Shown piece after piece: positions 1 through 23,338 of a stretch of DNA of 64,000 nucleotides; the first letter of the stretch is position 1; the number at the start of each line of letters is the position of its first letter. The notes under the pieces were generated by a model. The model saw only the letters and a list, made by a program, of their open reading frames with translations. It searched no databases and had not been told where the DNA came from. The DNA comes from Lophium mytilinum (lineage: Eukaryota): NCBI GenBank assembly GCA_010093605.1, contig MU004186.1, forward strand, positions 575,765 to 639,764, written 5' to 3'. The position numbers and the translations under genes are program-made.

Positions 1-490
1 AGCCCTAATTCCACGGAGGGGAAAGTGGAGAGTACAGTGACCGGCCGTGAATCTGGATACACTAGTTTGCCACTGCTTGGGGTACCCCCAAAGCCTTTCG
101 AAAACCCAAGGGCGACGTTGGGTTTCAAGCAGTGTATATTAGACTGCCTCTTGACTATCTGACTACTCAGCAGCCAGGCCACCCCCTACAATGGTGTCGA
201 GTAAGCAAGATTGAAGTCAAGCAGTGACGAATCTGTGTGCCTAGACTTACGTATAGTACTCGTACAATACAATAATTGTCGTATAAACGTAACTTTTCGG
301 GCAGGAAAGACGACAATAAACACAACAGAAGGATTGACAGGTTTTAAAGTAGTGTCAAGAAGTTTTTCGCTCTGGCTGGTTATATGAGACCGCCATAATC
401 TGAGCACTAGTAGTGGAAGGAAAACAGGAAGACAAGCAGTAAACTCTGCCTTATGACCTAACCCTTCTTCGGAAGTTGGTGTCAGCTACT

Positions 491-1653: not shown

Positions 1654-2085
1654 GTTCGGCTTCTTAAGGATGTTTGATCTCGAACACCAAGGTAGAGGAA
1701 GAAGGATGTGACTGATTGAGACTGGTGTTGAGGAGAAAATGTGGGCTCTGCGGGAGCAACGTTAGAGTTATCAAAAGACTGCCAATTTCCGTGTGTTCGC
1801 CGAGGGTACCCGTGGGCTCACATAGAGCCGTATTAAATAGTGAATGCCCACAGCAAGACACACGGCATAAAAGTACTACACAAAATCTCCTGCATAGACT
1901 TAAAGAGGCTGAGTTATATATGAAGAAGGTTTAAGAAGTATAAAGTGTTTGAAGGATTCTGCGCCGGTTGGCTCCAATGACAAAACCAGGCTTTGAGGAG
2001 GATTTAGTATAGAAAACTACGAGAAGTACCTTCACATACTCTACCACCTATCTTGAGAGCGCACACCAATCGACCCATTCCCACC

Positions 2086-3405
2086 CTACTTCAGGGTTAT
2101 CGCTTGAAGCTTTTGTCGAGCCTCCTCAAGCTTCTTCCGCTCTTCTAACTCCTTGTGCTTGTGCTCACTGGCCAACTTCAGCTGCTCACGCTTCCTGCGA
2201 CGAGTTTCCTTATCATTTTGCGAAGAAAGACCACCGACCCGCATCTCGCTCTCCTCCGATCCCTCTATGGACGTAACCGTTTCATCGCTATAGCCCAGTA
2301 CCGGGCCACCCGCGTCCGTCGCGTCGTCGCCCACCCTCTGCTTGCCTTTGCCCTTCTCTTTAGCTTCTTGAGCACTTCTGATCGCCGCCGCCTTCGCCTT
2401 CCCATGCTTCTTCACTGCTTCCCGTTTACGACGGTTGCGATCGCGAGTAGCCGGCTTGCCGCTGCCAGGTTGGACACTAATTTGCGGGGGTTTGGCAGCA
2501 TGAGCCTTTGGAGGAGTAATTCTCACCGGTGAGTAGTCGGTACGAACACTCAGACCAGTATGAATACCGGCAAGAAGGTCGCTAGGAACAGTCGGGGCAC
2601 TAGCAGCGGGACTGGCAGACATGTTAGCGTCGATTTGCGAGGGGATGCTGTCCAGGTTGAATCAAGTGAAGTCAATGCTAGCCCAGGCATGAATAACTAT
2701 GGTGGGTTCATACTCCAAGTCGGCACGCTGGAAGAGACGGACGCGCTTTGTCCAGAGAACCCGGATCAGCGCCACGTCGATCGGATCGATCGCAGGGATA
2801 ACGTTTCCATCACTCGCTAGGTAAGCAATATGACAAGCCCGGAGACCCGCGAGCGGACCAGACTGTGCGTCGGGATCGAAGTTATGCTCCAGCAATAAGT
2901 CGACCCAGTTGTCGCCCGGCTCACGGAGAGATAGATCGCTGGACTGTGCCGCGCGTACGCAGATCTGGCATGCAAAGTCCGGTTGCTGAACGTTGATGGG
3001 AAGTTGATTGACATTCTATCGTTTTCAGTATAAATACAAATATTGGTTGTCGTTCATAACACACACCTGCATGGCCAAGCAATTCGGCGCGCAATCAGTA
3101 GCGGAAGGCGTGAAGATGAAGTGGGTGCACTTCAAAACGTGCAGCTTTGAATGAGAGTTTCGGCAGCAACGATTTTCCTTAGAGGCGTCGATGGCTGAGG
3201 TGGCGGAGGCGGAGGAGGAGACCGCAGGAAGGGTGACCTCGTACTTCTCCCAAAATCTGCCGACTTCTAAGAAAGCCCTCACGCTGCGCCAGTTCAATTT
3301 GGCTTCAAGGGCCAGGATTTCAGAAGGACGGGATCCGGGCTCCATATTAGTAGGCGTGGCGGCAGACGGCGAACTGAAGTCATTGAAAGATGGGGTGGAA
3401 GTCAT
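2086..3405 (-). pseudogene. Cys/His-rich paralog 2 (intron 3016-3066) with in-frame TGA at 2662-2664; truncated gene or pseudogene
   Basis: Same motifs and intron position as paralogs 1 and 3. ORFs 2662-2895 and 2086-2622 are in the same frame, separated by a single TGA. Confidence 0.7.
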
Positions 3406-3757
3406 GAGGGACGTCAAACGCGAGTTCGATGGAGGATACAAAGACGAGAAGAAGGGAAACTATGGAACGCCAACGGTGTGTTGGAGAAGAGGGCAAAGAT
3501 CTAGGGGTGGTGACAAGAGTTCTGGGGAAAAGGTTGTGGCCCGTGTAAACGCACGGGCGTAGGTGAAGAGAAGCGAAGAGGTGAATTTAATGCGAAACTC
3601 TAACGCAAAGATAGAGCACCAGACGCCAAAAAATGAAAAGAGAATTCAATGATTTACCGCGCGTTGTGCAGCGGAAGTGAACAGAGGAGTAAAGGTAGAC
3701 ACGCTATAAGACTGGAAGCACAAGTCAGCGCCCACGACCTTCCCATCCCATCCACCT

Positions 3758-5093
3758 CTACCCCAGAGCCATCTTATCCAGGCCCTGCTCTGCGTCCCGA
3801 ATTTTCTTCGCCGTCTCCTCATCGTCCTCCATGGGTTCGCCCTCCTCGGCCTTTTCCTCGCTTTTGTTTGCACTATCCTTTGCAAGCTTTCTTTTAGCCT
3901 CCTCCTCAGCTTCCTGCTTCGTCTTCGTCTCCTTTTCTGCCTTCCTCCGCTCTTTCTCCAATTTCTGGCGTTCTCGTTTCTCGCGACGAGCTTTCGTCTC
4001 TTCCTCCGACCGCATACCCGCAACGGACCCCCCGACTCCTTCGTCTCCGTAGTCTAGTCCGGAGTCAGCTGTGGTGCTCGACTCCCTGTGCCCCCCTCTG
4101 CCTCTGGCTGATCGCTGGCCTCTGCTCAACGGCTGGCCTCTACCCGAAGGCAGTCCTCGTCTCGCTCCGCCATCACGCTCTACATTTCTCGCCTCATAGT
4201 CGTAGGCCATCTTCCTCTTGTCTGGCCTGGCTGACTTGCCGCCACCTGGCCCCTTCGGCACCTTGTCGTAGTCAAAGCCAGAGGCATCCACACCAGATGG
4301 ACCTCGGACGGCTGGTGTGAAATCAAGGTCCGCTCGTTGCTTGAGCTTGAAGCGGTGGGTCATCAGCGCGCGGATCAGGGCCGAGTCGATTGGCTCGACA
4401 GCTGGAATCAACGTGCCATCTTTCGCCATGAACACGACCTGGCAAGCTCGGAGGCCAGTGAGTGGAGTTGAATCCCGCTCAAAGTTCTCTTCCAAGAGCA
4501 AGTCAACCCAGTGGTTTCCAGGTGTACGAAGGGCAGGATTGTTGGCTTGTGCGGCACGGAGGCACAGTTGGCAGCCGAAGTGTGGCCCTTGGACGGTGGC
4601 GGGAAGGGGAGTCGGGTGCTACTAGTGTCAGTACATCTTTTGCTGTGTGAGGTGCATAACATCCTATACGTACCTGACCACCCAAGCAGTTCGGGGCACA
4701 GTCAGTGGCCGAGGGAGTCCAAACATAGTGCAGGCACTGCAAGCGGTGCAACTTCGAGAAGCTTCCCTTGCACGTGCGATTTTCTTTGGCGGGATCAAGG
4801 GCAAGTGTGATGGGCGGAGAGGTTGCTGTTGAAGAGGAGGCAACCAGGCCAGATCCGGTGGAAGCGGACGAAGTTGCAGCGGGAATACTGAGACGAGAAG
4901 GAGTCGACCCAGCTTCGGTGGGCATCACCTCCTCGTACTTGCCCCAAAACTTGCCCACTTGTAAGAAAGCAACGACCGACTTAATATCCAGCCTGGCCTG
5001 GAGTTCAAGGATCTCAGAGGCAGGGGCAGCAGAAGGGGCCTCGCCGGCGGTAGAGTAGAGACCAGTCAAGTCGAAGGCGCCAGAAAAAGCCAT
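3758..5093 (-). CDS. Uncharacterised Cys/His-rich protein, tandem paralog 3 (intron 4619-4673)
   Basis: The GTACGT..TACTGAC..TAGTAG intron joins KENRTC..SKLHRLQCLH..CAPNC to FGCQLC..WVDLLLE..LRAC..DGTLIP; charged C-terminal tail ending DKMALG (paralog 1 ends DKMNLG). Confidence 0.82.
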
Positions 5094-5517
5094 ATTGTGG
5101 GTTGTGCCGCTTTTGGAGAGAAAATGTGGATAGAAAGGAGAGAGAACCGTCTACCCGAGGTGCGTGAGTAGCTGTTGTTGGACTTTTGCTGGTGCTGTTG
5201 ACGGAAGCAAGTCTAGTGAAGCAACAGTATCAACATATTATGCAGTGGCTAGCTTCTATGCGCCACGTGGAAGCTGCTAGTGATAGTGAATGGCCTTGAT
5301 ATCGCAGGCAAAGCGCTTGGAACCCCATATTACGCCTCTCGTCGGCTGTCTAATAGGAACATCCGAAGACGAGGGCCGCATGTTACGTGATTTTTAAGGG
5401 AAACAAATTAGAACAGCTTGAACGAGTCACTGGTTGAAGCTACTGCTATCATCATGAAGACGCCGGCCTTACGCTCTTAAATACTTCGTTCGTAGCCTAG
5501 AAGCCGTTCACATTGGG

Positions 5518-6533
5518 TCACGCGCCGTGTTTGTCTTCGTAGACGACCACGGTCATATGGAGCGGTGGGCAAGACTGGCTTGATGTGACTTCGAGTTTGC
5601 CCGACAATGAGACCGATCGAAGCCACCTTGACACCTTCACGAGGCGGAAAAAGGTATAGAAATGACCACCTAACTCTCGCTGCCTGACGACGCTATTGAA
5701 ATCGAACGAGGTATCGTCACTATTGAAAATGACACTATGAACGAGCGTGACAGGATTGAAAGTTCGCCTACCTATGTAACGGATCGAAGCCAGTCTAGTA
5801 TTTCTAAGAGGGCCATGAAATAGCAACCAGACCTACGAGATTCGCGCTGCATGGCCTATGCTTGTCTCCATTAGAGCCGAAATCGGCGATGTTGAGTACT
5901 CGTTTTGCGAGCGTGAACAACGCTCGGGAGTCATCCAACTCGCTATACGCCTACACATCAGTCACGCTCATACCGCTCGATATCAAGCCTGTGGAATCTG
6001 ACATTCAGCCATAGAAGGGTCAGGAGCCCTCCAGCACGTTACCAATAACTGCACAGCAGTCTGACACCAGTACCTAGTATGCAGCGCCTCAACAATGTCC
6101 CTTTCGTAGGCGCCCCCAATCTGTCTTGCAACCTTGCAATGATTTACCTACCTTGATTCTATTGAGAAGCCTCCTACTCAATCGTCAAAGTTGAAAACAT
6201 AACTATTCATGATTCTGAACCGCTCTTCCGCTGTGAGCTTGTTCGCCGTGTCACAGACGCACTTGTTCCCGCAAAAGCAGCCATCGCGTAGAAGAATAGT
6301 CTTGATACCTTCAAAGGCGCAGGGAGTTGAGCAGTTACACTTAGGAGGCCTATTGATATGTTAGTATTGTTGGTAAGTCTAAATATACGCATTGAGCTGG
6401 TGTTCAATTGCTCTTGCAAGGTGCTGTCACACCACGAAGCGACCCAGCAATCGCATGGATGGAGTACAGCTGCAACCGGAGCTTTCAACTCAGACAACAT
6501 ACGTCCGGAACGTAGACACGTAATGAGAATCAT
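5518..6533 (-). pseudogene. Possible decayed coding sequence of unknown family
   Basis: Several short protein-like frames broken by stops; no recognisable motif. Confidence 0.2.
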
Positions 6534-6535
6534 GC

Positions 6536-7774
6536 TTACCAGTGATGTCCAGTCATGTTCATATATGTCCTCAACTCTGATCTGAGATCATGATGAACTC
6601 CGTTCCGCTCGTCTGTCAGAATCTTGTCCCAGCCATTCTTGACGCTGGTTTTGATGTATCCGGTCAGGTCAACCCGGGGAATGTGCTGAATCCACTTCTT
6701 TGCTGCAGTGAGAATCCAGTGTACCACTACCTTGTTGCACGAAGTAGATTGCTGAAGTACGAGCGTTGACCTCGCTGGAAATTTCCGCCATAGATATGGG
6801 TCTGTCTGAATGCCGTACTTGGTACTCTGGAAATTGAGCTCTAAATGGCGGAGATTGGACATGTAAGTCGAAGCGAGACATTGCGCAGGCGGATGTGAGC
6901 TTCGATTGTATTTTGGAGTCGGAAGCCCGAAGAAATACATGAAGCTCTCCATCATGAAGTCGAGTTTGATGTGCGTGAAGGTGGAGAGATCAAACTTCAT
7001 TGGTCCATCCTTGAAGTAAAATGCCCCAAACGCGCCGGGGTCGAGGAATATCTTGCGACTCTTCATCCAGCCAAGCTCGAATGACTCGTGAAACAGCTGC
7101 TTGTTTGCTAGCATAAGAGCTCTATTTGGTGGCTCCGCATTGGTCGGTTGGTCGTGATATGGTCTATCACGATGAAAGGTCATCCCTCCTGGTATACCTC
7201 GGCCAAGCAAGCGAACATCCTCGACGGAAGGCTCATCATAGCCCCGGATATAGAGAGAGTCGTTGAGAGTAGGGTAGATGTCTCGTCCGATGGCATGTCC
7301 GTAGATTTGATTTCGTAGTTCTCCAGGAAGCTCCAGGAATAAAAAAGCTTTTCCAGTCGTCTTCCACCACTCCATTTGACCCTTGTAGCCTCCTGAGTCA
7401 TCGCTCTCAACATCCTGTTTGTCTATCCAGCTTTGCAATGAGATCCATTTCTCGGGGACGCCGACTAGAACATCCTGTATTTGAATCTTCTTTGATAGTG
7501 ACGTCCCTACGGCGCAGGCGCTGAGTGGGATACTCTGTGCAGTACGAATAGGATGGAAGCATGGCTTGACTTCAAGAGTGAACTGCCTGATCTGGAACCC
7601 CTCTAGGAGAGGGAGCGGAGCGAAGTTATGCTTCAGCGATGTGTTCGATGCGGCACTGACGTCAAACAACCAGGCGCGAAAGTTCGTTCGTTGACGATTG
7701 TCGAGGTAAGATTTCACCGCCTCTATGAACAAGCCATCATTCGATGGTTCCGGAAGACCAAATTCGCTCGACAT
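6536..7774 (-). CDS. Hypothetical protein with internal F-box-like/2EXR-like motif
   Basis: 412-aa intronless ORF; FLFLELPGELRNQIY motif typical of fungal F-box-like hypothetical proteins. Confidence 0.75.
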   Translation of the reverse strand: MSSEFGLPEPSNDGLFIEAVKSYLDNRQRTNFRAWLFDVSAASNTSLKHNFAPLPLLEGFQIRQFTLEVKPCFHPIRTAQSIPLSACAVGTSLSKKIQIQDVLVGVPEKWISLQSWIDKQDVESDDSGGYKGQMEWWKTTGKAFLFLELPGELRNQIYGHAIGRDIYPTLNDSLYIRGYDEPSVEDVRLLGRGIPGGMTFHRDRPYHDQPTNAEPPNRALMLANKQLFHESFELGWMKSRKIFLDPGAFGAFYFKDGPMKFDLSTFTHIKLDFMMESFMYFFGLPTPKYNRSSHPPAQCLASTYMSNLRHLELNFQSTKYGIQTDPYLWRKFPARSTLVLQQSTSCNKVVVHWILTAAKKWIQHIPRVDLTGYIKTSVKNGWDKILTDERNGVHHDLRSELRTYMNMTGHHW

Positions 7775-8048
7775 GGTTGCGATCCGGCGGTTGATGATGA
7801 TTGTGGGGTGGGGATGCGGGCGTGGTGGCAGTGCAGCCCGGGCAGCTTTCCAATTATACTATTCTAAGTGCCAAGGCTGAATTCTATTTGGGGCTTAGTG
7901 CACTTCACATCCACTTCTAGTTTCGCTTGAGAATTACGCTTTCAGATCAGGCGATCCACGATGGATACTTCACTGGATTTAGGATTCGAATCTGACGACG
8001 CTGAAACCTTCCGGTGTCAAAGTCTAAACCAAAATCTTACACCTAATC

Positions 8049-8982
8049 TTACTCACCCTTCGGATAGTCAGTGCTATGGCTAACATCCTTCCACTCCGTC
8101 AACAAGGCCTCAGTCTCCTCACATTTCCCCCGAATGAATTTCTCTCCGTCGCTCCCCAGTACCAGCCTAACCGGGATTCCTTTCCCTTCCGCAACACCCG
8201 TCTGGGTCAACACATCCACAATCACCTGGGCTCCTTTCTTCACGTCGCCAGGCTGATTGTTGTTCGTTTCATCCAGCACCTTCCTAACCTGTCCCACTGC
8301 GCTCTCGTCATACACCGCCAGCTGCACGCCTGACTTTATTCTCGCGCCCGGGTTCAAGAAATTAGTCCTGAAGTACCCGGGCTCGATCACGGTCACTTGG
8401 ATTCCGAACGCCTCTACCTCTGTACGTAGCGACTCGGTCAACCCTGAAACAGCCCACTTCGTCGCAGCGTATAGCCCGAACGCTGGGCCGCCGCGCCAAG
8501 AGCCTACGCTTCCAAAGCTGGCGATCACACCGCTCTGTTGAGCGCGTAGGTACGGGAGGAAGGCGCGAACGACGTTCAGAGTGCCGAATACATTCGTGTT
8601 AAAGGTATCCTGAGATTCCTCGGGCCTGCGTACGATCTTCAGAAGAGCTTCGGATGCACTGGCGAAATGTCCATACTCACGTGGTCTCTTCAATCGCGCC
8701 CTCGAGGATGTAACCCGCGGCATTGATCAGATGGGTGATGCGACCGTACCTAGAGTGAGCCTCCGCGGCTTTACTCCTTAGTTCTTCGAGAGAGGCCGTC
8801 ACGTCAAGACTCATGACGCCTGCACCTGCGGCTTCAAGATCGGCGAGCTTCGAGGCATTGCGGGCGGTTGCGATCACTTTGTGGCCGCGGCTGAGGGCTT
8901 CGAAGGCAATGTTCTTGCCAAAGCCGCTGGTGCTACCAGTTATAAACCAGACGGGAGTCAAGCTAGAGATCGGAGCAGACAT
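8049..8982 (-). CDS. Short-chain dehydrogenase/reductase (intron 8626-8680)
   Basis: WFITGSTSGFG Rossmann motif, NAAG, catalytic YAATK, IEPGYFRT. Confidence 0.95.
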
Positions 8983-9709
8983 GGTTGGGAAGGTGCTTGA
9001 GTTGATGGATTGAGTGGAGCGGTGATTGAGAAATGAGACAGATGTTCTAAGGATGATGATTAAGGCTCAGATGCAAATGAAAGCTGTCGCGTATGAGACT
9101 AAAAGACAATGACCTAGGAAGAGATGTAATAATGGAGCAGGAAGTTGACCGCTGGCTGCTGTCAGCGTCTTTATATGCCTCGCGCTCGGCTACAACGCGC
9201 TTTCTTGGCTGTGTTGTAGCAAAGCACTGTATCACTGATGGTAAGGGTAACAATCCTGGTATCCGGACGAGAAGATGCAATATATCTCCGTTGCTGTAGA
9301 AGATCGGGGAGAGTTCTAGTGCTGGGGGAATAGCGAAAGGGAATAGTGACGATGGCAAGGGATTAAGACGGATATAAGATGGAGCTAGTGCTATTCGTCG
9401 GGTGCGGAATAGGTAGCGACGAATCCTTGGCGCGTTTTTTCGGTGCCCGTGTTCCCTACCAAAATTTGTATGAGAATCGCGGGAGCACCGCCTAATTGAA
9501 TATCATTTATACTTGCTAAACACCCAGAGAGCCTTATTTATTATTATCTTAAGGTCTGCCACTCAGTGCTAACACCGCTTTTTCACACGAAGACTCCAAT
9601 GTGACCCAATACGCTAATGCGATCTCTTCTGGGGACGTCCCAATCGCGTCACCAAATAAATTGTAGGAACCTTGGGATTTCGTTCAAAAGGGGTGTAGGA
9701 TAGCCATTA

Positions 9710-10510
9710 GTCTAAAAGTGGGTAGCGTAGATACTACCCCGGTCATTCGAGGCGGAGTTCCACGACGTCCCTCCTCCATCACCGACTCTTCTCCACGCCA
9801 TCCCCTAACTCGATCACTTCGCATTGCGGTTATGTAACCTGTCTTCTGATGAGTATGTGTACGCCTGTCTCTTGCTATACAAGGTATCCAGTAGTGCTTT
9901 TACAGATGCACAATAATCAGAGTTCTGTCGTTTTAGATGATCTTCGTGGGCGTCGTCCACGTCTTTTGCATCCCTCCAGGCTTCATGAGTTCTCCCTTGT
10001 CAAATTAAAGAGTAGGTGGAGCGCCAACGCAGAATTCCCGACTCGTTCAGTGTTTCTTCCAAGCATCATACTCAGAATCGCCGATTTCGACCCTCCCAAG
10101 GCGTAGAACTCCCTCCGGCTTCCCAGGCTCCATCCCCTATCAACCTGAAGGCGCCACCATCTACTTCATCCGCACCGAGGCGCAAGAAAACGGTCCTCCA
10201 AATCCGGTCGTTGCATAGCCATCAATAATAGCCTGCACGGAAGCCTGCAAGTTTCGAGTTAGCAGTGAAAGTGGAAATAAGTCGGACGAAGCCTTCACAT
10301 CCGCCCTCCGCGCTTACGAGCTCTGTGTCACCTCGGAGAAGCAAACCTCGAACGCCTTCCTGATCTCCACCCTCGTCCTCAAGTGCAAGAAGCTGAAGTG
10401 GGAGGAGCTGTTTGAGCGCCTTCCTACTGGCGGAAAATCCAAAAGATTGAGTGGCGGGAAGGTCCCTAAAACTTCTTCTCGAGCTTTGGAAAAGGTTCAG
10501 GAAACGCAAC
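9710..10510 (-). pseudogene. Possible decayed coding sequence downstream of the noxR fragment
   Basis: Protein-like frames (e.g. LCNDRIWRTVFLR) interrupted by multiple stops. Confidence 0.2.
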
Positions 10511-10621
10511 TAGTCGACTGTACCCGCTCTATGTCAGGTACCACCGATCCTGGCCGGCTCAACTGACAGCACGAAGCCCACGCGCTGAGGTCTGATGGGA
10601 GATAGGTAACAGTGATGCCAC

Positions 10622-10741
10622 GTCGTTGAAGTTTGCGAGAGCCTCCTCAAAGTCGCCCATGAGGAAATTGGACACGCCCTGTTGGAAGTTCGCTACGGCG
10701 AGGTACTGGTCCAGCCGCACTGCGCGCTGGTAGCAGTCCAC
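10622..10741 (-). pseudogene. noxR: Isolated noxR (NADPH oxidase regulator, p67phox-like TPR) exon fragment; possibly the 3' exon of a chimeric gene
   Basis: VDCYQRAVRLDQYLAVANFQQGVSNFLMGDFEEALANFND closely matches the fungal NoxR TPR segment as I recall it; preceded by GCTAAT branch and CAG acceptor; rest of noxR absent from the window. Confidence 0.85.
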
Positions 10742-10746
10742 CTGTT

Positions 10747-12270
10747 CTACATTAGCCGTAACTCTTGCAATTCGAGTACAGCCAAACGCACAGCCTCTCC
10801 CTCCTCCTCATCACCATCATCCGGAAAGGCGACGTCGAAATCGAAGGAGATGCCGTGCAGTACAGTTCGATCCAGATGGAGTCGAGGGTCCCAATGGTCC
10901 TTCATCTCATTGCACACCGCAGAAAGGTAGAAGTACCGAAGAGACGTATGCTTTTCGCTTATCAAATCTTGCAAAACCCGGTTCCAATTACCGTCCACGT
11001 TAAGGCGACCGTCGGCGAAGAGATACACTTTGTTCAGAAATAGACAGCTGACGCTTTCAAGATGGGTCTGAAGCAGCAAGCGTATGCTAGTTTCGCTGAA
11101 GCACCAGGGTCCGTCGAGACTCAATCGACGAAACCTGCTCTTGGTATTTACCAGTGCTGGAATGACACGTTGCCAGGCATACGGCACCCGACTCATGTCG
11201 TAACTCACGTCGGAATACCAAATCGTAATATATTGAAGGGTAGACGTGGTCCTTAGCAAGTTCGAAAGCGCGAGATCATCTTCTCGTGACCCGTGTGTGG
11301 TGATCTGGAGTGTATGGAGAGATTCCAGAGTGCCGCTAAGATGATGAAACAGTCCGCTTACTACGGACGGCTCAATCGCTTCGCAATGTTCGTCATCGAG
11401 ATTAGCCGTCCTGAAATCTTCCAGACTCTTCCCTGACCTAGCCAATGCTGCGAGGATAACCGGTAAGACCTTGTAGCTAAGCTGATGGCTCCAGTCTTTG
11501 TAAAGTGGATGCATCTGTTCAGCAATCTTGATGACCTGGGAGTTTGTGGCTTGGGTATCTCGAGGTTTTCTCGCTTCCGCTGCCAACAAGAATTCCACCC
11601 AGATCTTCATCATCAACTCTCGTTCCTCTGGGGCCAACCATGCTCGAAGATGAGTACCTGCTTTTCTGATAGGATCATAGATGCAGATCCTTACCTTTTT
11701 GACCTGTTTTAAGGTCCGGAGAGCGGCCATGAGAGCATTGACTCCTCGATCTGACGCATAGAGCTCCTCCTGATTCTTGTGACATTCCATGTACTTTTGG
11801 ACCATTCCCAGGAAGGCACTCTCTTCTTTTCTTCCCTTCATAAAGACTGGCAGTTCATCAAAGAGGGCACTATTTCTTCTTGGCCAACTCACGATGTTGC
11901 GTTGTTGCTCATCCGGTATTTCTTGGCCATTGAACCCTCCCGTCCCGAATGTAAGAGTTCTGACCCATGGTGCAAGATCCGCAACTTTAGAGATCTCGGC
12001 CAAATCATCTAGGTCAGGTCCTATGAGTCGAAAATGGAGGTCGCCGACAAGCCTTCCGAAGGACTTCCACGCAGCTTGTCGAAAGTCGCGAGATGTCTGC
12101 CGGATACTCAAGATATCGCATCGGGATTGCTCCGTAAGTATGGGCCATTTGTAGAAGCCTATATTTTCCTCGTCCGTGCTGTCGGTGAACGCGGGTACGT
12201 AGAGCTCCTCCAGGTGCTGAACGACGAATTCCTTGATCTCCGGAGGAATATTATCGATATTGCACGCCAT
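10747..12270 (-). CDS. Hypothetical protein, N-terminal F-box-like motif and degenerate LRR-like C-terminus
   Basis: 507-aa ORF; IDNIPPEIKEFVVQHL; LxxLxI-type repeats (LESLHTLQI, LQYITI, FRRLSL, LRYFYL). Confidence 0.75.
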   Translation of the reverse strand: MACNIDNIPPEIKEFVVQHLEELYVPAFTDSTDEENIGFYKWPILTEQSRCDILSIRQTSRDFRQAAWKSFGRLVGDLHFRLIGPDLDDLAEISKVADLAPWVRTLTFGTGGFNGQEIPDEQQRNIVSWPRRNSALFDELPVFMKGRKEESAFLGMVQKYMECHKNQEELYASDRGVNALMAALRTLKQVKKVRICIYDPIRKAGTHLRAWLAPEERELMMKIWVEFLLAAEARKPRDTQATNSQVIKIAEQMHPLYKDWSHQLSYKVLPVILAALARSGKSLEDFRTANLDDEHCEAIEPSVVSGLFHHLSGTLESLHTLQITTHGSREDDLALSNLLRTTSTLQYITIWYSDVSYDMSRVPYAWQRVIPALVNTKSRFRRLSLDGPWCFSETSIRLLLQTHLESVSCLFLNKVYLFADGRLNVDGNWNRVLQDLISEKHTSLRYFYLSAVCNEMKDHWDPRLHLDRTVLHGISFDFDVAFPDDGDEEEGEAVRLAVLELQELRLM

Positions 12271-12514
12271 TCTCGAAGACTCCGCGGAGGCCCAACGATT
12301 TTGTTGAGGGGGGCAAGAGGTTGGTGTAGGAGGCCAGGTTTGGAGGTGCGGTCAAACGGTAAGAGAGTTTAGCTAGCGCGTAAACGCACGACCGCGTAGG
12401 GCCTATGAATGCACGTGATTGTAGTCATCTGCTGACACTTGCCTAGCACTGTCCGGAGTGGCCTAAAAAGGTTTACCGATGAGTCAAAACATCCTTTCGA
12501 CACATTCGTGAGCT

Positions 12515-12548
12515 TGTTGGAGCACCCCTAACAGTGGCAACTGGTCGT
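12515..12548 (+). repeat. 34-bp dispersed direct repeat, copy 1
   Basis: TGTTGGAGCACCCCTAACAGTGGCAACTGGTCGT; 33/34 identical to 13274-13307. Confidence 0.9.
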
Positions 12549-12737
12549 AAGCACATATCTATTCCAAAGAAGAAAATTTGGAAATTCAGACTTGCCAGAG
12601 CTCCCGCTAAACAATCACCTCCACATCCATCCGCGCGTGCAGCCATTCCGTTTGGCGTGACCGCACGTGATGCCTTGCGAGCTGCCTCCGAGCTACCTCA
12701 CGAGCTGCAATACAAGCTGCAATGCTTGAGCCCGTAC

Positions 12738-12957
12738 TATTACTTCCATTACTTACATTACTCCCATTACTTACATTACTCCCATTACTTACATTACTCC
12801 CATTACTTACATTACTCCCATTACTTATATTACTCCTATTACTTATATTACTCCCATTACTTACATTACTCCTATTACTCACATTACTTACATTACTTAC
12901 ATTACTCACATTACTCACATTACTCACATTACTCACATTACTCACATTACTCACATT
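12738..12957 (+). repeat. 9-bp minisatellite (CATTACTYM), ~24 copies, in a RIP-like TpA-rich segment
   Basis: Direct tandem units ACATTACTC/CCATTACTT. Confidence 0.95.
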
Positions 12958-13273
12958 AACCTTACCCCTAAGTGAAACTGTACTTGCACTCTCTAATTTA
13001 TTACTATCTGTCGTACCTAAGTTCCTAGCAAATGCTAGAACTACCAAACTCTCACCTTATATAGACTGCTTTCCATTAAGCTTAGCCCGATGCCTGCCTG
13101 GCAATCTACATCGCCGCCTGTGCTCGCTCATCTGTTCACTTAAGAGGAGGCTTCAAGGGGCTAGCCCAGTTGCTCCAGCCAACTAGAAGATTAGACGAGA
13201 TTAGGGTATACGATTATTAGTCCTCCGTTACAAACACAATCGTTACAGCAACCTCTTCAACATGTTAAAAGCG

Positions 13274-13307
13274 TGTTGGAGCACCTCTAACAGTGGCAAC
13301 TGGTCGT
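13274..13307 (+). repeat. 34-bp dispersed direct repeat, copy 2 (degenerate third copy ~13521-13560)
   Basis: TGTTGGAGCACCTCTAACAGTGGCAACTGGTCGT. Confidence 0.9.
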
Positions 13308-13864
13308 GCACATACATCCACTTATAAATGCGGACAAGTAGTCAGGCATGCAGTACTTAGGTAGGCCAGAAGTGTGAGCACATAGATAAATTATTACTAG
13401 ACTCGAATCTTGCTCGCCCGATGCCACTGTAAGGAGTAGCCTGAGCTCCAAACCGCTGCTTAGCTAAGAGGTAGTCTATTTCGCACCGCACGAGACTTGA
13501 TATCGCGCCTATAATTTTGAAGCCTGTGGAGGTACCCTAAACAGTGGCAATCGAGTGTGCAGACTTATCACAAAAATGCTTCTTTTCTTTCCAATCCTAG
13601 AATCTTGTTTCCCCACCTCATCACATAAATCAAGTACCTCAAACCGAAACACTACGCTCGTTCGTTACACACGCGCAATGTCCATCTCCTGCTCCCGCAC
13701 CTCACCCTACCACTATACCCCTCCATCCCTCCTTCTTCTATTCTACAACAAACTCTCCAAACCTCACATCTCGATCGCACGCAAGTCATCCTCTAAGCAT
13801 CTACCTGCAAATCTCCCACCAACTCTCCATCCAGCTCATCCAACGCATCTACTCCAAACCCACC

Positions 13865-14260
13865 ATGGCGCCCCGCCCCTCCTCAACCTCCCCCGCAGCT
13901 CCTCCCACGACTCCCGATATCACCTACTACAAAGCAACAACCTACCCGAACCCCGACTTCCTCTCAAACACCCGCCGATGCAGCTACACCGTCTTCGTGA
14001 CCCCTGTCTCACCTCCCCTTTCGAATCCGCAACCGAGGCCAGATGCGCGGCGGAGGAGCGCGTCGCAGGAGCGGTTGGAGGCGTGGATGCGCATAAGGGG
14101 GATGGAGATGGTGCGGCCGAAAGGGGAGGAGGTTAGGAGAGACGTGGGACAAGGGATGGGAGGGATGGGAGGCATGGGGAAGGGGAAGGAGGTGGCTAGG
14201 AGGAGGAAAGGGGAGAAGCGGGTGAGGTTTGCGGAGAGGGTGGTTGTGATTCCGGTGTGA
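13865..14260 (+). CDS. Small hypothetical protein (131 aa)
   Basis: ATG in good context (CACCATGG) after a C-rich leader; C-rich to G-rich gradient like other genes here; C-terminal KRVRF. Confidence 0.55.
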   Translation: MAPRPSSTSPAAPPTTPDITYYKATTYPNPDFLSNTRRCSYTVFVTPVSPPLSNPQPRPDARRRSASQERLEAWMRIRGMEMVRPKGEEVRRDVGQGMGGMGGMGKGKEVARRRKGEKRVRFAERVVVIPV

Positions 14261-14642
14261 GAGAAGGGGGGAGGGGATTGAACAGGAGTCTCGCGTCAGC
14301 ATTTTGGGTTTGAGGTGGGGATTGGGTGTTTTTGGAATTAGGATTTGGGGGGGTTTCGTTTCTTTGCGTGTTGGGTATAACTAGGATAGGATAGCGAAGT
14401 GTTGGTGGGGTAGCGGGGTGTATATTGTACTGTATTGGAGCAGGTATTATATCCCACGACCTCTAGAGCTATAAGGTGCTTTCCTGACGAGCTCAAATAT
14501 AACCTCTTAGTTTGAGAATTCAGATGAAGCGCGTAAGTGAGGAATCCGAGAGAGCTTGGCTCATCACCGGACCCAAAAGTTGCGTGATGCGTTCACTCAC
14601 TTCTTCATCCATCCACAACCCGACGTCCAGTCCCCATTGCGC

Positions 14643-15769
14643 TCACACCAACTTCCATCTCTTCGCGACCTCAATCCCCTCCGCAAACGTCCCCACCCTC
14701 GCGTCAATCGCGTACCCCTCCTTCTCCAACCTCTCACACTCCGCATACAGATCCGTCATCGGCACCGTAAAGCACTCAATGAACTCGCTCTCTTCAAGCT
14801 CCGGCTTCGGGTTCTGATTCTCGGGGAGCGACATATCGATCGTCACATGTATCATTTGAACATTCGTATTGCAGAAACCAGGGTCTAGGAATATGTCAGA
14901 AATAGGATACTAAACCCGAAGCCGCGTACTAGAACTCCAAAGACAAAAGTAAAAACTCAGGTTCCAAATAGTGCTCACCATTGAACTGCACGGGCGTCAC
15001 CCCAAACCCCTCCACCACCTTCCCCCTATACCCGGTCTCCTCCCGCAGCTCCCGTAGTGCACACACCTCCGCCGTCTCGCCCTCGTCAATCAATCCAGCG
15101 GGGACTTCAATCACAATCTGGTTAATCGGCGGCCGGAACTGCTTCTGTAGCAAGATGCGCGGCGGGGCGGAGGGGTGCGCGGGATCGTTCTCCATGATGG
15201 CGATGATGCCGACGCCGTCGATGGCGCTGCCATGGGGACGAGTGAGGCGCTCGGAGGATTCCCATGTGCGGGTAGTGGATGTGGGGTCGGTGTAGGATAT
15301 TCTTAGAAGGCGTTAATGGGAGGGAAAGGGGTTGAGGAACGAATAGTAAGGAAAAGCTTCGACATGTCCATAATGACGAGGGGAAGGGTCGTGAAGAGAA
15401 GAACAACATCCCCAGCCACCCATCTTGCCAAGGCTCCAGAGTATTCCTGAAGCTCCAGTAGCCAGGGCTTGTGAGCTTGTTTTGACATTTTGAGTTTTGA
15501 GACAGCGAGGATCAGGTTGATTCCTAGCAGGATGAGGCTGGCTTACGTGACCCGGTACTCCCAGATCTTGTTCATGGGTCGGGAGCCCGTGATGGGAAGG
15601 AAAGGTCTAGTATACAGAAAAGGGGAAAGCATACTTTACTAGTCTCACCCAACGAGCGTCTTTTGGGTCCTGACGACATCAGGACAAGGGATTGAGGAAG
15701 AGGTGAAGAGGTGATGAGACTTACCAATGGCTCGGTGGCCGTTACCTTAGACTTATCGAGGGTCGACAT
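14643..15769 (-). CDS. YSA1: ADP-ribose pyrophosphatase, Nudix (introns 15670-15724, 15302-15634, 14885-14978)
   Basis: QFRPP..IEVPAGLIDEGETAEVCALRELREETGY Nudix box; DPGFCN; IDARV. Confidence 0.93.
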
Positions 15770-16334
15770 AGTATCGATCAGGTCACATAGCATATGTAGA
15801 AGAAGGTTGTGTTTGAGTCTAGAATCGCGAGCGTGGTGATGCAACTGTGGCGGTGCGACGGCGCTAGAACGGTTTTACTCTAGCATCGATCTGGGGATCA
15901 CCGACATCGCTTGACAACCTCATGGAGGGTGCGCTCGGGGGAATAGCTGGCGCATTCGATAGGTAGGGTCCAGTTGATTATGCGTGGGATGGCCCGTCCC
16001 CGCAGGTGTGCGCTGTACAGGTCTCTAAGAGTGAAGAGAATTTGATTTAGTCGGAGTGCATGACGGGTCACATAGATTTACAAATACTGGATGATGAAAC
16101 ATTGCTTTAATGGCGTCTAATTCCAAATGCCAATCATCAATGCATAAGTACCCTGATCATGAACTCCTAAATCATACATCCCCTGAGCCTGCAATATTCA
16201 CTCTTCTGGAGATCACAGTCATAGTCCGAAATGCAGTGTGACGTCCTATCAGATGTCGCACTTGAGACATCAAACCATGTGCACCTCTGACTTACCACTT
16301 CGGTAAGCTCCCACGCAAACCAGTTGCAGTGCAC

Positions 16335-18362
16335 CTAGAATCCAGCGCCCTCGCCGTTGACACCATTGACACCGTTAGCCCCGTTCGCGGCCAGTCCCTT
16401 GCTCTCCTTCAAGATGTCTGCCGTTATCTGATCCAGCACGCCAGCGCTAGCAGCCATGAAGCCCAGATAGGGCTTGCTAGGGTTCAGGACGCGACTCAGG
16501 TACTCGGGATGGAACTGCACACCAACGAACCACGGGTGGTCCTTGAGTTCGATAATTTCCATACGCTCGCCCTTGTCATCCTTGCCGACGAAGCTGAGGC
16601 CGCCTTGCTCGAGGCGCTCAATGTAGGCGGGATTAACCTCGTAACGGTGCCGATGGCGCTCCAAAATTTCGGGCTTTTCGGCGTAAAGCGCGCGGAGCTT
16701 GCTCCACTCACTTCCAGACTGGAACAATGTAGGCCGCTTCCCTAGCCGCATTGTGGCGCCCATAGTCTTCTTATCAACCTCGGGCATGAACATGATAAGG
16801 CGCTCCGCGGCCTCTGCATTGAATTCTTCAGAGCTGGCGCCTTCAATGCCGCAGACATTGCGCGCAAACTCTATGACGGCGATTTGCATTCCAAGACAAA
16901 TGCCTAGATACGGAGTTCGGTTCTCGCGGGCCCACTTGGCCGCAAGGATCATGCCTTCCGTGGCGCGGTGGCCGAAACCACCAGGAACCAGAATGCCGTT
17001 AGCAGTGCATAGCTGGTGCCAGGCCTGGTGGTATTTAGCAGGGTCTTCGGTCTGATAAGAGTGCTCCAGGTACTCCGCGTCAATCCAGATAATATTCAGC
17101 TTGCGCCGGCACCGCATAGCAGAATGCTCGAGAGACTTCGTGACGGAAAGATAGGCATCGTGCAATTCGACGTATTTTCCAACGAGGGCAATATTTACGG
17201 TCGCGAAGAAGTGGTCTTCGGGGGCGGTGAGACGCTTCCACTGATCCCACGTGGCGCTTCCTTTCGCGACCACCGCCGGAGAAAGGGAGAGGCGGTCCAG
17301 GCTGAGGATGTCTTGGAGCTGCGGAATGAGACCTTGCTGTTCCAGAAGCATAGGAACCTGGTAGACGGTAGGCATGTCGCGCACCACAATGACAGATTCA
17401 ACTTCTACTTGACAGAAATGGGCAATCTTCTCCACAGCTCCCTTGTCGAGGTTGCGCTCGCAACGGCAAGCAATCTAAAACAGAAAGTCAGATCTGCTCT
17501 TGGGCGCTCGGGAGGAATGTCTCACCAGATCGGGAATGAGGCCAGCACTCCGCACCGCTTTGACAGCCTGTTGGGTGGGTTTTGTCTTCTGTTCGCCATT
17601 GATGGTAGGAACATATGAGACGTGGATTTGTAGGAAGTTGTGCTTTCCCGCGCGCCGCCGCAGCTGCGTCATGGCCTCAACGAAGGGGCTGCTCTCGATG
17701 TCTCCAACGGTGCCACCCAACTCAATGATGCACACGTCGGGCTCCTCGCCGGTATCATCGACGGGTATCCGCGCAACCCTGGTTATCCACTGTTCAATGG
17801 CGTCGGTTATGTGGGGCACCACCTGCACCGTCTTCCCAAGATAGTCGCCGCGGCGCTCGCGCTCGATGACCTGCTGATAGATCTTGCCCGTGGTGATATT
17901 GTTCTCGCGCGTCAGGGTGATGTTGAGGTATCGTTCGTAGTTGCCCAGGTCGAGGTCGACCTCACCGCCGTCGTCCAGGACAAACACCTCGCCATGTCTG
18001 CACAGACTTTAGATGCTGCAATCCCCCGCCTGGTGGAGACACGTACTCTTTCGGGTTCATAGTCCCAGCATCGACATTAAGATAAGGGTCGATTTTAATG
18101 GACGACACGTTCTGAGGATGTCAGCTGCGTGTCTCGTCGCGTTGGGAGGGCTCACCTATCTTCAGGCCGATTGTCTTGAGCAGCAAACCGGTGGAGGAGG
18201 CTTTGACGCGTAAATTTAGCTGCCAACCATACGCGGGGCGGGCACATGCATACCGATGATGCCCTTTCCCACACCGGATATAACACCTACGCGGGTTAGC
18301 ACCGAATTGGCAGTCACGATAGAAGAAATACACGCACCTCCAGAGACAAGGACGTATTTCAT
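16335..18362 (-). CDS. URA7: CTP synthase (introns 18287-18337, 18201-18253, 18109-18159 [AT-AC], 17998-18046, 17475-17525)
   Basis: [61 protein letters not shown]. Confidence 0.98.
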
Positions 18363-18898
18363 GATGGCGATAGAAGTATGCGGTGCCGTTCCTGGCCAAT
18401 GCCAGGGGGAAAGAAGAGAAGAAGCTGAGCGCCGGCTCAAAGATTTTTGTACGGCGGGGTGGGGCGGACTGTCGGACGCGCTAACCACGAGACGAGCAGC
18501 GAGGCGCCATGGCTCAGCGCGACGGATCCTTCATTCAACGTCACTTCGTCGACGCACTGCTGCTCCGCAGATCCTTTCAGTCTTGTAGGTGAATTGTATT
18601 CCTCGTAAACATGCTAGGTAGGCTATGTCTTGGTATCGTACTCGATGCGCTCGCAACCCCCCAGCGTATTACACCATGCATCGCCAACTACACGCGTCGT
18701 GTACAGAAATATCGCCGTAATCATACGTTCCAGTCCGTCACTCCGTCCGTCTTGTTTGTCGTCAAAAATGCCCGGGATATCTGTCCAGTAAAGTGCCAAA
18801 TTTGAATCAATATGCCGCGCCGCCTGCGTCTAGAAAGAAATTATAACCCATATCCCAAGAAAAAATGCCTGCCATATGCATGCCGCGCCGCCGTCTCG

Positions 18899-20403
18899 TC
18901 AAACCCTGCGCCGTCGTTTGCTTGGGTCTTCGTCATCGTCTTCCTCTTGGTGATAGGGCGGCTCTTGTTGAGAGGCCGCCTCTCGCTGGTTGGCTTCGTT
19001 CCAGGCCTGCTGGGCCTCTCCAGCCTGCCGCTTGCGCGCGCGTGTCATCGCGGCAATGGCCTTTTCATTCCCTTTCTTGACCTGTATGTTACATCCTTGC
19101 AGCTTGAGTGCTCGGGTAAGGGCGCTGCTCGGGCGCATGCCAGGGAAGTCCTTCGCGGTATACACGGTGAAGACGTCGCTTAGCACTTCGGTCAAGATGG
19201 GTGAGAATCCGCCCACGTGCAGATTCATCGGGTCTATCCGCATCAACACGAAACGTAACCGGTACTTTCCGTGTGTCCGACACGACAGGTCGGGGAAACA
19301 GAAGAAGCAACCCTCGACGTCGTGCTCGTCTTTAGCAACCGACGGCGAAGCTACGAGCTGGCCCATCAGCCTGCGTGTGGTTCGTCGGTCTGGTTGGATG
19401 AGTGCCGTCTCTTCGTTCGTTCCATCTGCGTTCCACAGAGTACAATGAACAACATTGAGCGAGTAACGTAGCTCATCGGTGTCAGCAACACCGGTCTTCG
19501 GGTCGGTCACTAGGAGCTGTATGATCGGGGGAGGATCAATGACCCTCCGGTCTCGTTCGCCAAAGCCGCAAGCGCGCGCTGCGATGGGTTGCTGGCGCAC
19601 TCGTAGCTCGTACGCTAGGTTTCTTCACGGCTATGTTAGCTTTCTCCCTTATCCGCGGAATTACAAGCTTACAGTTTCTCGTTCACAACAGGCTGCGGGA
19701 TAGAACCGGGTAACGGTACGGCGCTGGGTAACGGTCGAGGGCCTGCCGTTGCAGGTTCCGCATACGCTAGCGAGCCCAGGGAAGATGGGATGGATCCTCG
19801 ATGCGAGCCTATGGATCCCCGGAATGGAGTATTGCTGGACGCATAACTCGGCGTGTAACTGGGTGATGGGAGTGGGGCATACGACGGTTTCTGTGACGGT
19901 TCGACGGGCGAAGCAAGGGGTGCGTACTGCTGCTCGGGATGGCTGGGTCGCCTATCTTCGTAGGCATACCGCTGTTCCACCAGGCGCCTGGGAGCGCTTC
20001 TGTCTTCAAACTGCGAGCGCGGCGAGATGGAGGGCCCATACTGCTGAGGTGAGTAGGGTGGATCCGACCTTGGCGGGGTATACGGGTTCGCCTGGAGCAA
20101 CTTCTCGACGGGCGCCGCAGACGCCACATGGCCTCGAGGCTGGCTCGGGCGTGCTGGAGGGCCTGGCTGAATCGAGGGGAGTGGCTGTGCGATGGGAGAG
20201 CGGAATTGATACTCTGGTCGTACAGCGTTCGGCGGGATGGTGAGCGGTGGCAGCTGGACAGGCTGCGGCAGACGGCGATAGGGATTGCCTAGGAACTGGG
20301 GCGGAGGAAAGGACGGCGGCTTCTGAGTTTCAGTCATGGCTGGAGAAGAGAGGGCGGAATTTGGCGGATGCAGCGGCGGAGGAGGAGGTGGTTGTCGGGA
20401 CAT
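18899..20403 (-). CDS. velC: Velvet-domain protein, VelC-type (intron 19623-19672)
   Basis: Pro-rich N-terminus then C-terminal velvet domain RQQPIAARACGFGERDRRVIDPPPI..FPDLSCR..FPGMRPSS. Confidence 0.88.
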
Positions 20404-23338
20404 GCGTGGATTATTAGTTGCCCGCGGCTGGACAGGCTGCACGAAGCCGCATCTGGCGCTCCGCTGGGTGACGGGAGAGGCTCTGGGGGGAAGCGTAGCA
20501 GGTTCGAGGTTAGACAGGAATGACGGCGTGGGCAGCGCTGGGGCACGATGGGCGGTCTGGAGGTTTATAGGGTCCCGGCGGCCCAAGGTGCACGCATGGA
20601 GGAGCTCGATCGTCACCAGCTCGATCGCCACCACGCAGCGGACCACTGAAGGACAGAGCAGGCGGGCACGCTGCGGCGGACACTGAGGGATCCGGGCTGG
20701 GGTCGGGCTGCTGGGTTCTGGGAGCAAAGCCTCAGGGCGGACATCTGCGACACGCAATGGGGAGCGCTGGAAGCAGCCGAGGCGGGCAGCAAGCAAACAG
20801 CCTCGTTCACTGGAACGGCCCTGGCGACTATGTACTGGCGGGCTTGGCAACTCACCCCAGAGACCAAGTGGGATTCTGGCACACTAGATTGATATGGCGC
20901 CGGGACCGAGCAGGGCAGGGCGCGGGGTGTCTCTCCAGACTGGCCGCGGTGGCTGGGAGTGGTGTAGTCGTAGGTGAGGCCGGCGGGGGAGACAGGTCAG
21001 GATTATGCCGGGCTTTATCCTGCAACAACGGCTGCCCGCGAGCTAGGCGACGGCGTGAGAGCGGAGTGTTTGAGGACGAGACGCAAAGGGCGAGGACGCA
21101 AATAATGGATGGACGGGGGCGCTGGCAATGGGGGGACGGGCGGCGCTGCAAGACATAGGGCTTGGGGCGTGGTGGTGCAGGGCCAGCGATGCTTTTCGTC
21201 GTGCCCGTCCAGCGTGGAGAGGTTCGCCGGATAAAACAGGGCCCAAAGCCTCTTGCGGTGCTGAGGTTTCGCAAGGTGCAAAGGGGGGCGGGTAAAGCGA
21301 CTGTTTCGAATCGACGGCGCTGCAGCACCAGCCAGCGACGACGAGGCGTATCACACTGTGCTCCGCCGGCACCCAATTTGTGAGCAATTATCGCATAGAT
21401 TGGCATGTAACTCTGGCCATTGCTGGCCCGTCCTGAGGTAGCATCGCCGGCCGCAGACGCGGGGAGGGGGGATTCCACCGCGAGCCTGGCTCCAAGGGCG
21501 CGCGTAACGGCTCTGGAACTGCCGGGTTCAGGAAGACAGACGCCACGGTGCGCTGAGTGCGGCCGCGTGCCCTACAGAGATGATATGCTGGACAGGGCGC
21601 TCTAGTGGTGATGGCCATCGCGGTGGTGGTGCTGGGGGGCATGTTCGACCTGCCTTGGCCCAACCAGGAATCGCTGCGATCTTCTCACCATGGCCTGGCT
21701 CCCGTGCGGCTGCGCGAATCAGCGCCGACAATGCAGCCCACCGGCCTCGGATAACTCCATCGGCCTCCTCTTCGGCTCAAGCGCCCGAATGCACCCCGGC
21801 CCGTGTGGCGTGCGATCCGCTCAACACCATGCGTCTCTCGTCGAACCCCGGCTGGCCAACATCATCACACTCGCCCTCAGCCACCGCATCCCAGGTCTGC
21901 GGGCCCTGCAGCAACGGCTATCATGCATCGCGAGATGCCTCCGAGGCCACAGAGGCTGGACGATGCCCCCTGCGCATGCTTGCGGCCTTTCGAGGTCCAA
22001 TTCACCGAGCGGCGGGCGATCTGCCGACGCGCTGCCTTCCATACGCTGCTCTCCGCGGACGCTGTCTGACTGTCCCCAGGGCGTTGATGTCGCTGGCCAC
22101 TGACCATCCCCGCAATGCCATGTCTGTCCCTGGCCATGGGAGGCGGAACCGCAATCCGGGCAAATGTGACATATCGCTGCGGTTTGAGCACCATCTGGGA
22201 GCGGTCTGCTCTGAGCGGGCCGTGGCGGAAGGCAAGTGGCCGGCAGCGACATCGTGTCATGCGATATCTTCATCATCCAGATGGGGGCAGCATGGAAACC
22301 CCGGCTGCGTCGACCACGGCACGCTCCATCGAATGGCGTCTCGGTGATTCTGCACAGCAAGATGCAGAGAAGCTTAAACCACAACGAGGCAGCTCGTGCC
22401 GCGAGTTTTCCCATTTCAGCCGACGGGGGGGCTTGTCGTGGCTGCAGCTCCCGAAGCGTCAGCAGCGGGAGGCCGAAAATCTCGTTGACCGTCAATTTCC
22501 AGCCTAAAGCAGACGGCTTCTGCAGCTCCTTGCCCATCCCAGGCTTGCCCAGATCCCATGCATGTGACACCACTGGAAGTGAGTGCGCTATTGAAAAGCA
22601 GCTCTGCGAGCGTGAGACGATAGAGCCGAACGCCAGCTCGTGGGGTTCTGACTTCTCGCCCGTGCCATGGCTGTGCGCGCGGTGCAGCAGTCACCGTTGA
22701 GATTGTGCCTTGCTTTTTGATTGCCCCATGCGTGCGGCGGGCGGCCGTTGTCGAATGGCTTGCCGTGGACCGTGGAGTGCATCACAAGCGGCAGCTCAGG
22801 CGCGGATGCAGTTAGCGCTCAGTTCGAGGGCCGGTTTGGAGCTCCAGGCATGAGCTCTGCTCAGGTGGGCAATAATGCGGAATTGATCCTCAATATCAAC
22901 GCATGCGCAAGATCTGAGGCCCAGGTTCTTGATGTACATACTCGCCTCTTACCACTATCCGCGGTGCTTTGAAGCGTGCTCATAGATTCGGACGAGAGAA
23001 AAAGAAAATGCATTGATCAGTTGAAAATACAGACGTACCTTAAAGCAGTGCCTACTGTGACACCGATGCATGTGGACCTCACCTTGATGCACGAATCTAC
23101 GCGAGCCATCCCCCTTCCGCATCACGACTGCCAAGGAACCTCACCTCCGCCAATACACCACCGCACATCCTAGCTGCCTCTACTGCACTCGCATCTGTGC
23201 ACACCGCCGGCGCAGGGCTCGCGCTGAAGATCGGAGCAAATCTCGACGGCCACCCTCCAACATCGCAATCCAGGCCCGCTTTCTAGACTCGCTGCCGACG
23301 ATCAGCGCCTCTGCCGCTCCTCTCGCAGCGTGACAGCC

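Follow-up and report, generated by a model that had tools for sequence, protein, structure and literature searches.

The 3' end of an F-box-like gene of Lophium mytilinum carries a 680-bp insert (10796-10117) which is a chain of short pieces of unlinked genes, and the intron brought in by its first piece is spliced, joining part of noxR in frame to the host gene. The window, i.e. the whole stretch that was analysed, comprises 64,000 nt (contig C6, 575765-639764, of a 43.4-Mb assembly), and all positions refer to it. The insert is flanked by a target duplication. Its identified donors lie at five unlinked loci on five contigs and gave pieces of 66-175 bp with 91-98% identity. The probable origin is a capture of genomic fragments during end-joining repair of a DNA break, with a near-neutral chimera as the outcome. 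The features are collected in Table 1.

Table 1. Features of the chimeric gene and its insert, ordered along the host gene
Feature	Positions	Strand	Remarks
Approximate transcribed unit	9690..12320	-	X3 contigs stop there, DNA runs continue; one study only
Exon 1 of chimeric gene, F-box-like N-terminus and predicted LRR-type solenoid	10792..12270	-	493 codons
Left copy of 8-bp target duplication, GGAGGGAG	10797..10804	-	flanks insert
Piece 1, noxR from contig C3, sense	10622..10796	-	167/175 identical, E 1.3e-74
Captured noxR intron, 50 nt, GT...AG, phase 0 of 507-aa ORF	10742..10791	-	spliced in chimeric RNA
Exon 2 coding part, 40 NoxR-derived residues and 20 residues from piece 2	10559..10741	-	stop 10561-10559
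Piece 2, from C7, same direction	10559..10624	-	64/67 identical
Part lacking an identified donor in the L. mytilinum genome, 154 nt	10405..10558	.	DNA and pattern searches
Piece 3, exon of CHIP-type TPR co-chaperone gene, C19, antisense to host	10286..10404	+	117/119 identical
Piece 4, Aa_trans permease gene, C8, sense	10176..10300	-	95% over 125 nt
Piece 5, exon of peptidase S10 carboxypeptidase gene, C23, antisense to host	10116..10185	+	64/70 identical
Right copy of 8-bp target duplication, GGAGGGAG	10109..10116	-	same codon phase as left
Stranded original host 3' end, 20 codons and stop	10047..10109	-	frame runs on across duplication

Piece 1 consists of 5 nt of noxR exon 2, the whole of intron 2 and 120 nt of exon 3. 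On C3, native noxR codes for TPR and PB1 domains (Pfam), and the donor exon 3 matches human p67phox at E 2e-19. The captured intron has a branch-like CTAAT. Its removal opens a 553-aa frame with a stop ending at 10559; the final 5 nt of exon 1 are noxR exon 2 sequence. A first-pass annotation made from the letters had proposed this phase-0 intron within the 507-aa ORF, the noxR identity of the piece including a Y>N change, and a capture at the DNA level with the intron kept. All of this was borne out, and the parental gene which it suggested to look for was found on C3, intron included. The 40 residues that it had assigned to NoxR are indeed derived from noxR; it had not recognised that the last 20 stem from the second donor on C7, nor the chain of further pieces and its 8-bp duplication. 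A capture specific to noxR was too narrow a view, with noxR contributing only 175 of the 680 inserted bases and at least five donors being involved.

Three sequencing runs contained the stretch, all as assembled contigs. X1 and X2 are from one DNA sample, X3, listed only as presumed RNA, is from another study; it was taken to be RNA on the evidence that both native introns, of noxR and of the permease gene, are spliced there. One 1611-nt X3 contig (12320-10660) omitted exactly the 50-nt intron (splice joint 10738->10789, cut +3, CT..AC) and was otherwise identical to the window. It joined 1.5 kb of the host gene to the noxR piece across the intron and carried the noxR alleles of the copy at 10690 and 10721, not the native ones. 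At three listed positions inside the captured intron X3 had no depth; the splice was the only joint listed in X3 for the region and the spliced form the only one seen. This confirmed in RNA the junction 10742-10791 that had been put forward for checking, and at the RNA level the other option of the first-pass annotation, an inert fragment, was wrong. Further X3 contigs extended the coverage of the insert down to 9690. With the strand of the transcribed unit taken from the splice ends, we infer one continuous mRNA of ~2.6 kb with a ~870-nt 3' UTR. A public gene model, P0001 (642 aa), has two more introns, 10567-10510 and 10317-10245; if both were spliced, the frame would gain residues derived from antisense CHIP together with most of the permease last exon. 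Their splicing was not seen in X3, where contigs crossed both unspliced; as contigs drop rare forms, a minor isoform may use them.

An empty, insert-free allele was not seen in any of the three runs; therefore, the pre-insertion state had to be deduced. The host-gene and junction contigs of all three runs showed no differences from the window. Could the insert be an assembly chimera? No listed contig spans the whole stretch, three of the seven joints have an overhang of less than 31 letters on one side in the records shown, and the sample of X1 and X2 is possibly the source sample. However, the other four joints were bridged by at least 31 letters on both sides, the pieces differed from their donors at fixed sites in DNA and RNA runs from two studies, and the target duplication is in codon phase. 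An assembly error is extremely improbable.

On C7, the donor site of piece 2 precedes the start codon of a kinase gene by ~750 nt; this RS-rich gene looks CTK1/CDK12-like from a reading of its ORFs. The donors of pieces 3, 4 and 5 carry the Pfam domains TPR and CHIP_TPR_N, Aa_trans and Peptidase_S10, respectively. Piece 4 contains the last permease intron minus its 5' splice site, plus the last exon. All five identified donors persist on other contigs, the four coding ones with open coding frames around them. Two introns (noxR, permease) were retained in the insert and two of the five pieces (CHIP, S10) are antisense. For the segment 10558-10405 a DNA search of the genome yielded no donor. Three 20-nt patterns with 2-3 mismatches produced eight non-self matches, none of which extends convincingly (the best one 74% over 38 nt). 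The one of six frames searched had neither a Pfam nor an Atlas match, and among the run contigs no donor contig at 85% was present in the bin 10408-10508. Possibly this segment is composed of several very short pieces.

Seven joints delimit the pieces, two of which have only one identified parent. At the five joints with both parents known, perfect microhomology amounted to 0, 3, 7, 3-4 and 1 nt; the 7 nt are at the joint of pieces 3 and 4. Imperfect matches were 12/15 at CHIP/permease and 8/10 at permease/peptidase. Such joints might be left by serial template switching of one nascent strand (MMBIR or polymerase-theta-like) which re-anneals 8 nt upstream and thereby creates the duplication. 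Microhomology exists at three internal joints, two of them with the longer imperfect matches, and the available sections of PMC11724301 give NHEJ, Alt-EJ and MMBIR for joints with 0-20 nt of microhomology. Against template switching, the outer joints have only 0 and 1 nt, six or more invasions of unlinked loci would be needed in one event, and distant insertions in yeast depend on Lig4, not on Rad51 or Pol32, as far as the accessible parts of PMC11372161 and PMC11724301 go. We consider it unlikely.

The chance of an 8-bp duplication is ~0.0016, allowing 3 nt slack at each end. Terminal inverted repeats were absent from the insert ends (best 5 nt, offset by 8), a DNA search of the genome did not find a second copy of the 680-bp unit, and no part of the insert is repeat-derived; both ends match single-copy host genes. 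Pack-type DNA transposons (hAT/MULE) have terminal inverted repeats, further copies and an 8-11-bp target duplication. The insert fits in the length of its duplication, but terminal repeats and further copies are absent. Helitrons capture sequences between a 5' TC and a 3' CTRR end at an A|T target and leave no duplication; such ends were not found at the insert, and a duplication is present.

An RNA-templated origin was considered as well, i.e. a LINE reverse transcriptase jumping between cellular (pre-)mRNAs during target-primed insertion. A target duplication exists, comparable chimeras occur in Magnaporthe (PMC2104539, available sections), and all five donor stretches are in X3 contigs minus their spliced introns. 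In addition, both intron-bearing pieces start within a few bases of the donor 5' splice site, noxR 5 nt before it (10796) and the permease 5-11 nt inside it (10300-10292); this nearness, observed in just two cases, might point to fragment ends that are linked to splicing. According to the same sections, however, the Magnaporthe chimeras need uniform orientation, a retroelement 3' part and 10-20-bp repeats. Here, two of five pieces are antisense, a repeat part is absent, introns were retained and poly(A) is lacking (A runs of at most 3, T runs of at most 4). The target GGAGGGAG is not a TTTT/A insertion site. The retention of introns and the mixture of orientations speak for DNA as the template. 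The orientation of the pieces contradicts RNA templating, which is largely refuted and which we regard as very improbable.

The surroundings of the insert were inspected for carriers and for similar events. A large element bounded by terminal inverted repeats (59-13558) was rejected since its arms look like members of a dispersed-repeat family; likewise, a MITE-like arm at 9393-9505 was dismissed as a carrier, being a single arm 600 bp outside the duplication. This arm belongs to a family which elsewhere forms inverted pairs of 290-610 bp (C1, C11, C14, C20), some AT-rich inside; no partner arm exists within the window. Further captured copies were not found in 300-9390. The control region 13600-28300 gave one 81% match and is a weak control, its own self-match not being listed. 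A search with 10780-14500 was swamped by a minisatellite, with 40 of 58 candidates scored. This 9/18-bp minisatellite (12740-12960) is located upstream of the host gene and has dozens of similar tracts genome-wide. A ~216-bp dispersed repeat with 320 candidates is at 29-273; degenerate partial relatives at 12511-12559, 13270-13318 and 13362-13568, inverted relative to that copy, sit around the upstream region of the host gene. Between 500 and 5100 there are three small minus-strand genes, alike by eye, with a Cys/His-rich N-terminal part; a 40-nt repeat occurs there at 3237-3276 and 4931-4970. A 412-aa single-ORF gene (6536-7774) had no Pfam match above the cut-off; inspection by eye suggests an F-box-like LPxE motif in its interior. 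Another gene with an ORF is found at 16335-18162.

What is the host gene? The public protein P0001, annotated as hypothetical, corresponds to the 507-aa ORF and is identical over 97% of the ORF length; its first 552 residues are the chimera. The host protein had 76 matches among cluster representatives, itself included. The closest relative is a 474-aa protein from Mytilinidion resinicola with 46% identity, whose C-terminal end is ~30 residues past a shared motif. The loci examined in the L. mytilinum genome contained nine paralogous ORFs. With this relative in another species and the paralogs, the earlier designation of the gene as an orphan had to be given up. Three paralogs with 25-29% identity to the host are clustered within 20 kb (C11:1628000-1648200; L055-L057). 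The Pfam F-box match of the host protein was at E 0.035 and 14.5 bits, below the cut-off of 20.5, and PF00646 matched at E<=0.1 in 12 of the 54 family members that were aligned out of the 76 matches. In the predicted structure of P0001 pLDDT was mostly >75 up to residue 480, and over this length helix/strand repeats form a confident LRR-type solenoid. Foldseek with this model returned LRR proteins as top matches (E 6e-5 to 1e-3, low TM-scores), and COI1, Skp2 and TIR1 were among the LRR folds matched. Judged by the model, the host protein would resemble such F-box/LRR proteins in an F-box-like N-terminal motif and a solenoid, with the Pfam score below cut-off and TM-scores low.

The original 3' end of the host gene has survived. 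It now sits in the 3' untranslated region, behind the insert and in the host frame; the computed protein without insert has 511 aa. The stranded tail was scored against the last 45 residues of six relatives, using 2000 shuffles. It resembled the C-terminus of P0021 (equally good shuffles, 10/2000) and weakly that of P0004 (76/2000); the likeness to P0002, P0003, P0005 and P0006 was not significant. By eye, P0002 and P0003 have the same spacing and L/V-x-F-G/C motif as the stranded tail.

The 40 NoxR-derived residues of the new tail align to p67phox 57-96. From the repeat boundaries we take this to be about one TPR unit of four. The equivalent of Asp-67 is kept, that of Arg-102 falls outside the piece, and Y74N affects a residue common to native NoxR and p67phox. 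Both Asp-67 and Arg-102 are named critical for Rac binding by p67phox in the accessible part of PMC2121648. Compared with the NoxR/p67phox TPR domain (PDB 1e96), the captured piece has no Arg-102 equivalent, no activation domain and no PB1; a complete TPR domain with both residues is absent. The view that it supplies a working part of the Rac-binding region was not supported. The pLDDT of the tail was 42-59, which is weak evidence because there was no alignment depth over the tail. A NoxR-like piece was present in P0001 only, among 77 proteins compared; the relatives of the 507-aa gene in this set, to which the first-pass annotation had also directed attention, do not carry it. Non-synonymous changes occurred at 1 of 92 sites in the translated noxR piece and at 1 of 163 sites in the untranslated pieces (Fisher P=1), a comparison of two changes which has almost no power. 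Nothing in these sequences shows selection on, or usefulness of, the new tail.

We also asked whether the chimera is adaptive. The NoxR piece might serve as a binding module or decoy linking an SCF-type adaptor to Nox/Rac, or the antisense 3' UTR might regulate CHIP and the peptidase. The tail is in frame and spliced, no other form was seen in the RNA run, one TPR-like unit can still be discerned in it below the cut-off (E 1.7e-5), and a TPR match was found in only 1 of the 54 aligned family members. Yet the piece lacks an Arg-102 equivalent and the remaining TPRs, Y74N alters a shared residue, the translated piece shows no excess conservation, landing in phase had a prior of 1 in 3, and spliced donor transcripts occur in the same RNA run. 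Adaptation is improbable. Most likely the product is an ancestral-type F-box/LRR-like protein and not a Rac binder.

The differences between the pieces and their resident donors were counted in the non-overlapping coding cores of the four coding donors, a count that excluded joint overlap zones as well as the piece from C7. In the donor frames there were 7 synonymous and 2 non-synonymous changes (78 and 255 sites; pS 0.090, pN 0.008). Intron differences were 7/91 (0.077). In the antisense pieces alone, 5 of 6 differences were synonymous in donor frames. Compared with neutral drift from a direct ancestor of the resident allele the synonymous bias had P 0.010-0.086, depending on transition bias and on whether adjacent changes are counted as one. 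This is no more than suggestive of a young insert with pieces that came from alleles other than those of the resident donors. Such alleles might have been supplied by a genetically different nucleus, i.e. a fusion or mating partner, e.g. one destroyed in an incompatible heterokaryon, with debris of sub-nucleosome to nucleosome size being ligated into the break. Foreign nuclear DNA would explain the allele-like differences, even in antisense untranslated pieces, as well as the donor-less 154 nt. A tamer reading, in which the species is polymorphic and normal outcrossing followed the insertion, fits the same differences, and we consider a foreign nucleus rather unlikely. A MITE copy in the L. 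mytilinum genome has RIP-like dinucleotide indices, the insert does not. RIP typically acts on duplications of >400 bp (PMC4522978, available text). If DNA of a different nucleus was indeed captured, pieces far below the ~400-bp threshold would constitute a RIP-proof route to instant spliced exon shuffling in fungi of this kind.

Our preferred reading, break repair by end-joining, would run as follows. A DNA break occurred near the 3' end of the F-box-like/LRR gene and was closed, presumably in a single event, by a patch assembled from loose pieces of genomic DNA, each 66-175 bp long; at least five unlinked loci served as templates, the originals remaining intact. The 8-bp duplication would have arisen when staggered break ends were filled in, or when a transposon left its excision footprint. 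By a chance of 1 in 3 the intron of the first fragment landed in the reading phase of the host. The spliceosome removes it, resulting in an mRNA for a host body of 492 residues followed by 41 NoxR and 20 junk residues. If translated, this new 553-aa protein would stand in for the former one of 511 aa, and what remains of the patch would be 3' UTR. The chimera would most likely keep the role of the ancestral F-box/LRR-like protein, its helical tail being poorly folded and near-neutral. Piece sizes, intact donors and the multi-fragment structure are as in yeast break insertions. Against break repair are the duplication, five or more fragments where yeast has two to four, the 154 nt without donor, and a synonymous bias that is unexpected from simple copying of resident genes.

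As a protein, the chimera probably matters little. The locus is a very clean case, with expression, of exon shuffling through what is probably break repair, and probably not a new functional protein. Multi-fragment break patches are known from cancer genomes and from assays in yeast; in this natural fungal genome, both breakpoints can be read, as can the displaced tail of the host, the five donors and the product of splicing. A captured intron can function at once and place a foreign exon in frame; thus, one repair event can re-tail a protein. Because RIP typically needs >400 bp, patches of short pieces may offer RIP-active fungi a way of rearranging their coding sequence. The synonymous bias offers a direct test of whose DNA is captured. 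In the openly accessible literature, the matches listed included no account of this locus or of comparable inserts from wild fungi.

How does the insert compare with known systems? As far as the accessible sections of PMC5110952 go, human class 1 templated sequence insertion polymorphisms (TSIPs), produced by LINE ORF2 in trans, have a target duplication of at least 5 bp, poly(A) and a TTTT/A site, and class 2 TSIPs are break-repair products defined by the absence of a target duplication. They share with our insert that sequence from distant loci is inserted seemingly at random. The insert combines a class 1-type duplication with class 2-type microhomology; however, with a duplication lacking poly(A) and a TTTT/A site, and as a multi-donor chain, it fits neither class. 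The fillers left at excision sites of DNA transposons in rice are foreign segments between remnants of the target duplication, with a mean of 13 bp (1-123 bp; PMC4423477, available text). Segments within a duplication are alike in both, but no transposon remnant is present at the Lophium insert. Template-jump chimeras of Magnaporthe LINEs (MINE and a tripartite element) are described in the available sections of PMC2104539 as RNA copies in the same orientation with a retroelement end. As the insert, they are fungal, multi-part, flanked by direct repeats and transcribable; unlike them, the insert has mixed orientation and kept introns and no LINE/SINE or other retroelement part.

Closest are the complex templated insertions at double-strand breaks in budding yeast, reportedly described by Yu et al. 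2018 in a paper on Dna2 (cited in PMC6943134). Dependence on Lig4/Pol4 end-joining is a mark of the yeast type. In the accessible parts of PMC11372161 and PMC11724301 yeast break insertions are short (about 45-300 bp) copies of distant nuclear loci whose donors are not deleted; complex ones comprise two to four fragments, and distant ones need Lig4. Short distant copies, intact donors, several fragments and short microhomologies are common to both systems. The kind of event is known; what varies is its setting and outcome. The yeast insertions are induced laboratory events, whereas the Lophium insert is natural, derived from at least five nuclear donors, i.e. the five found plus a donor-less part, flanked by a target duplication, and its captured intron is spliced in frame in a chimeric mRNA.
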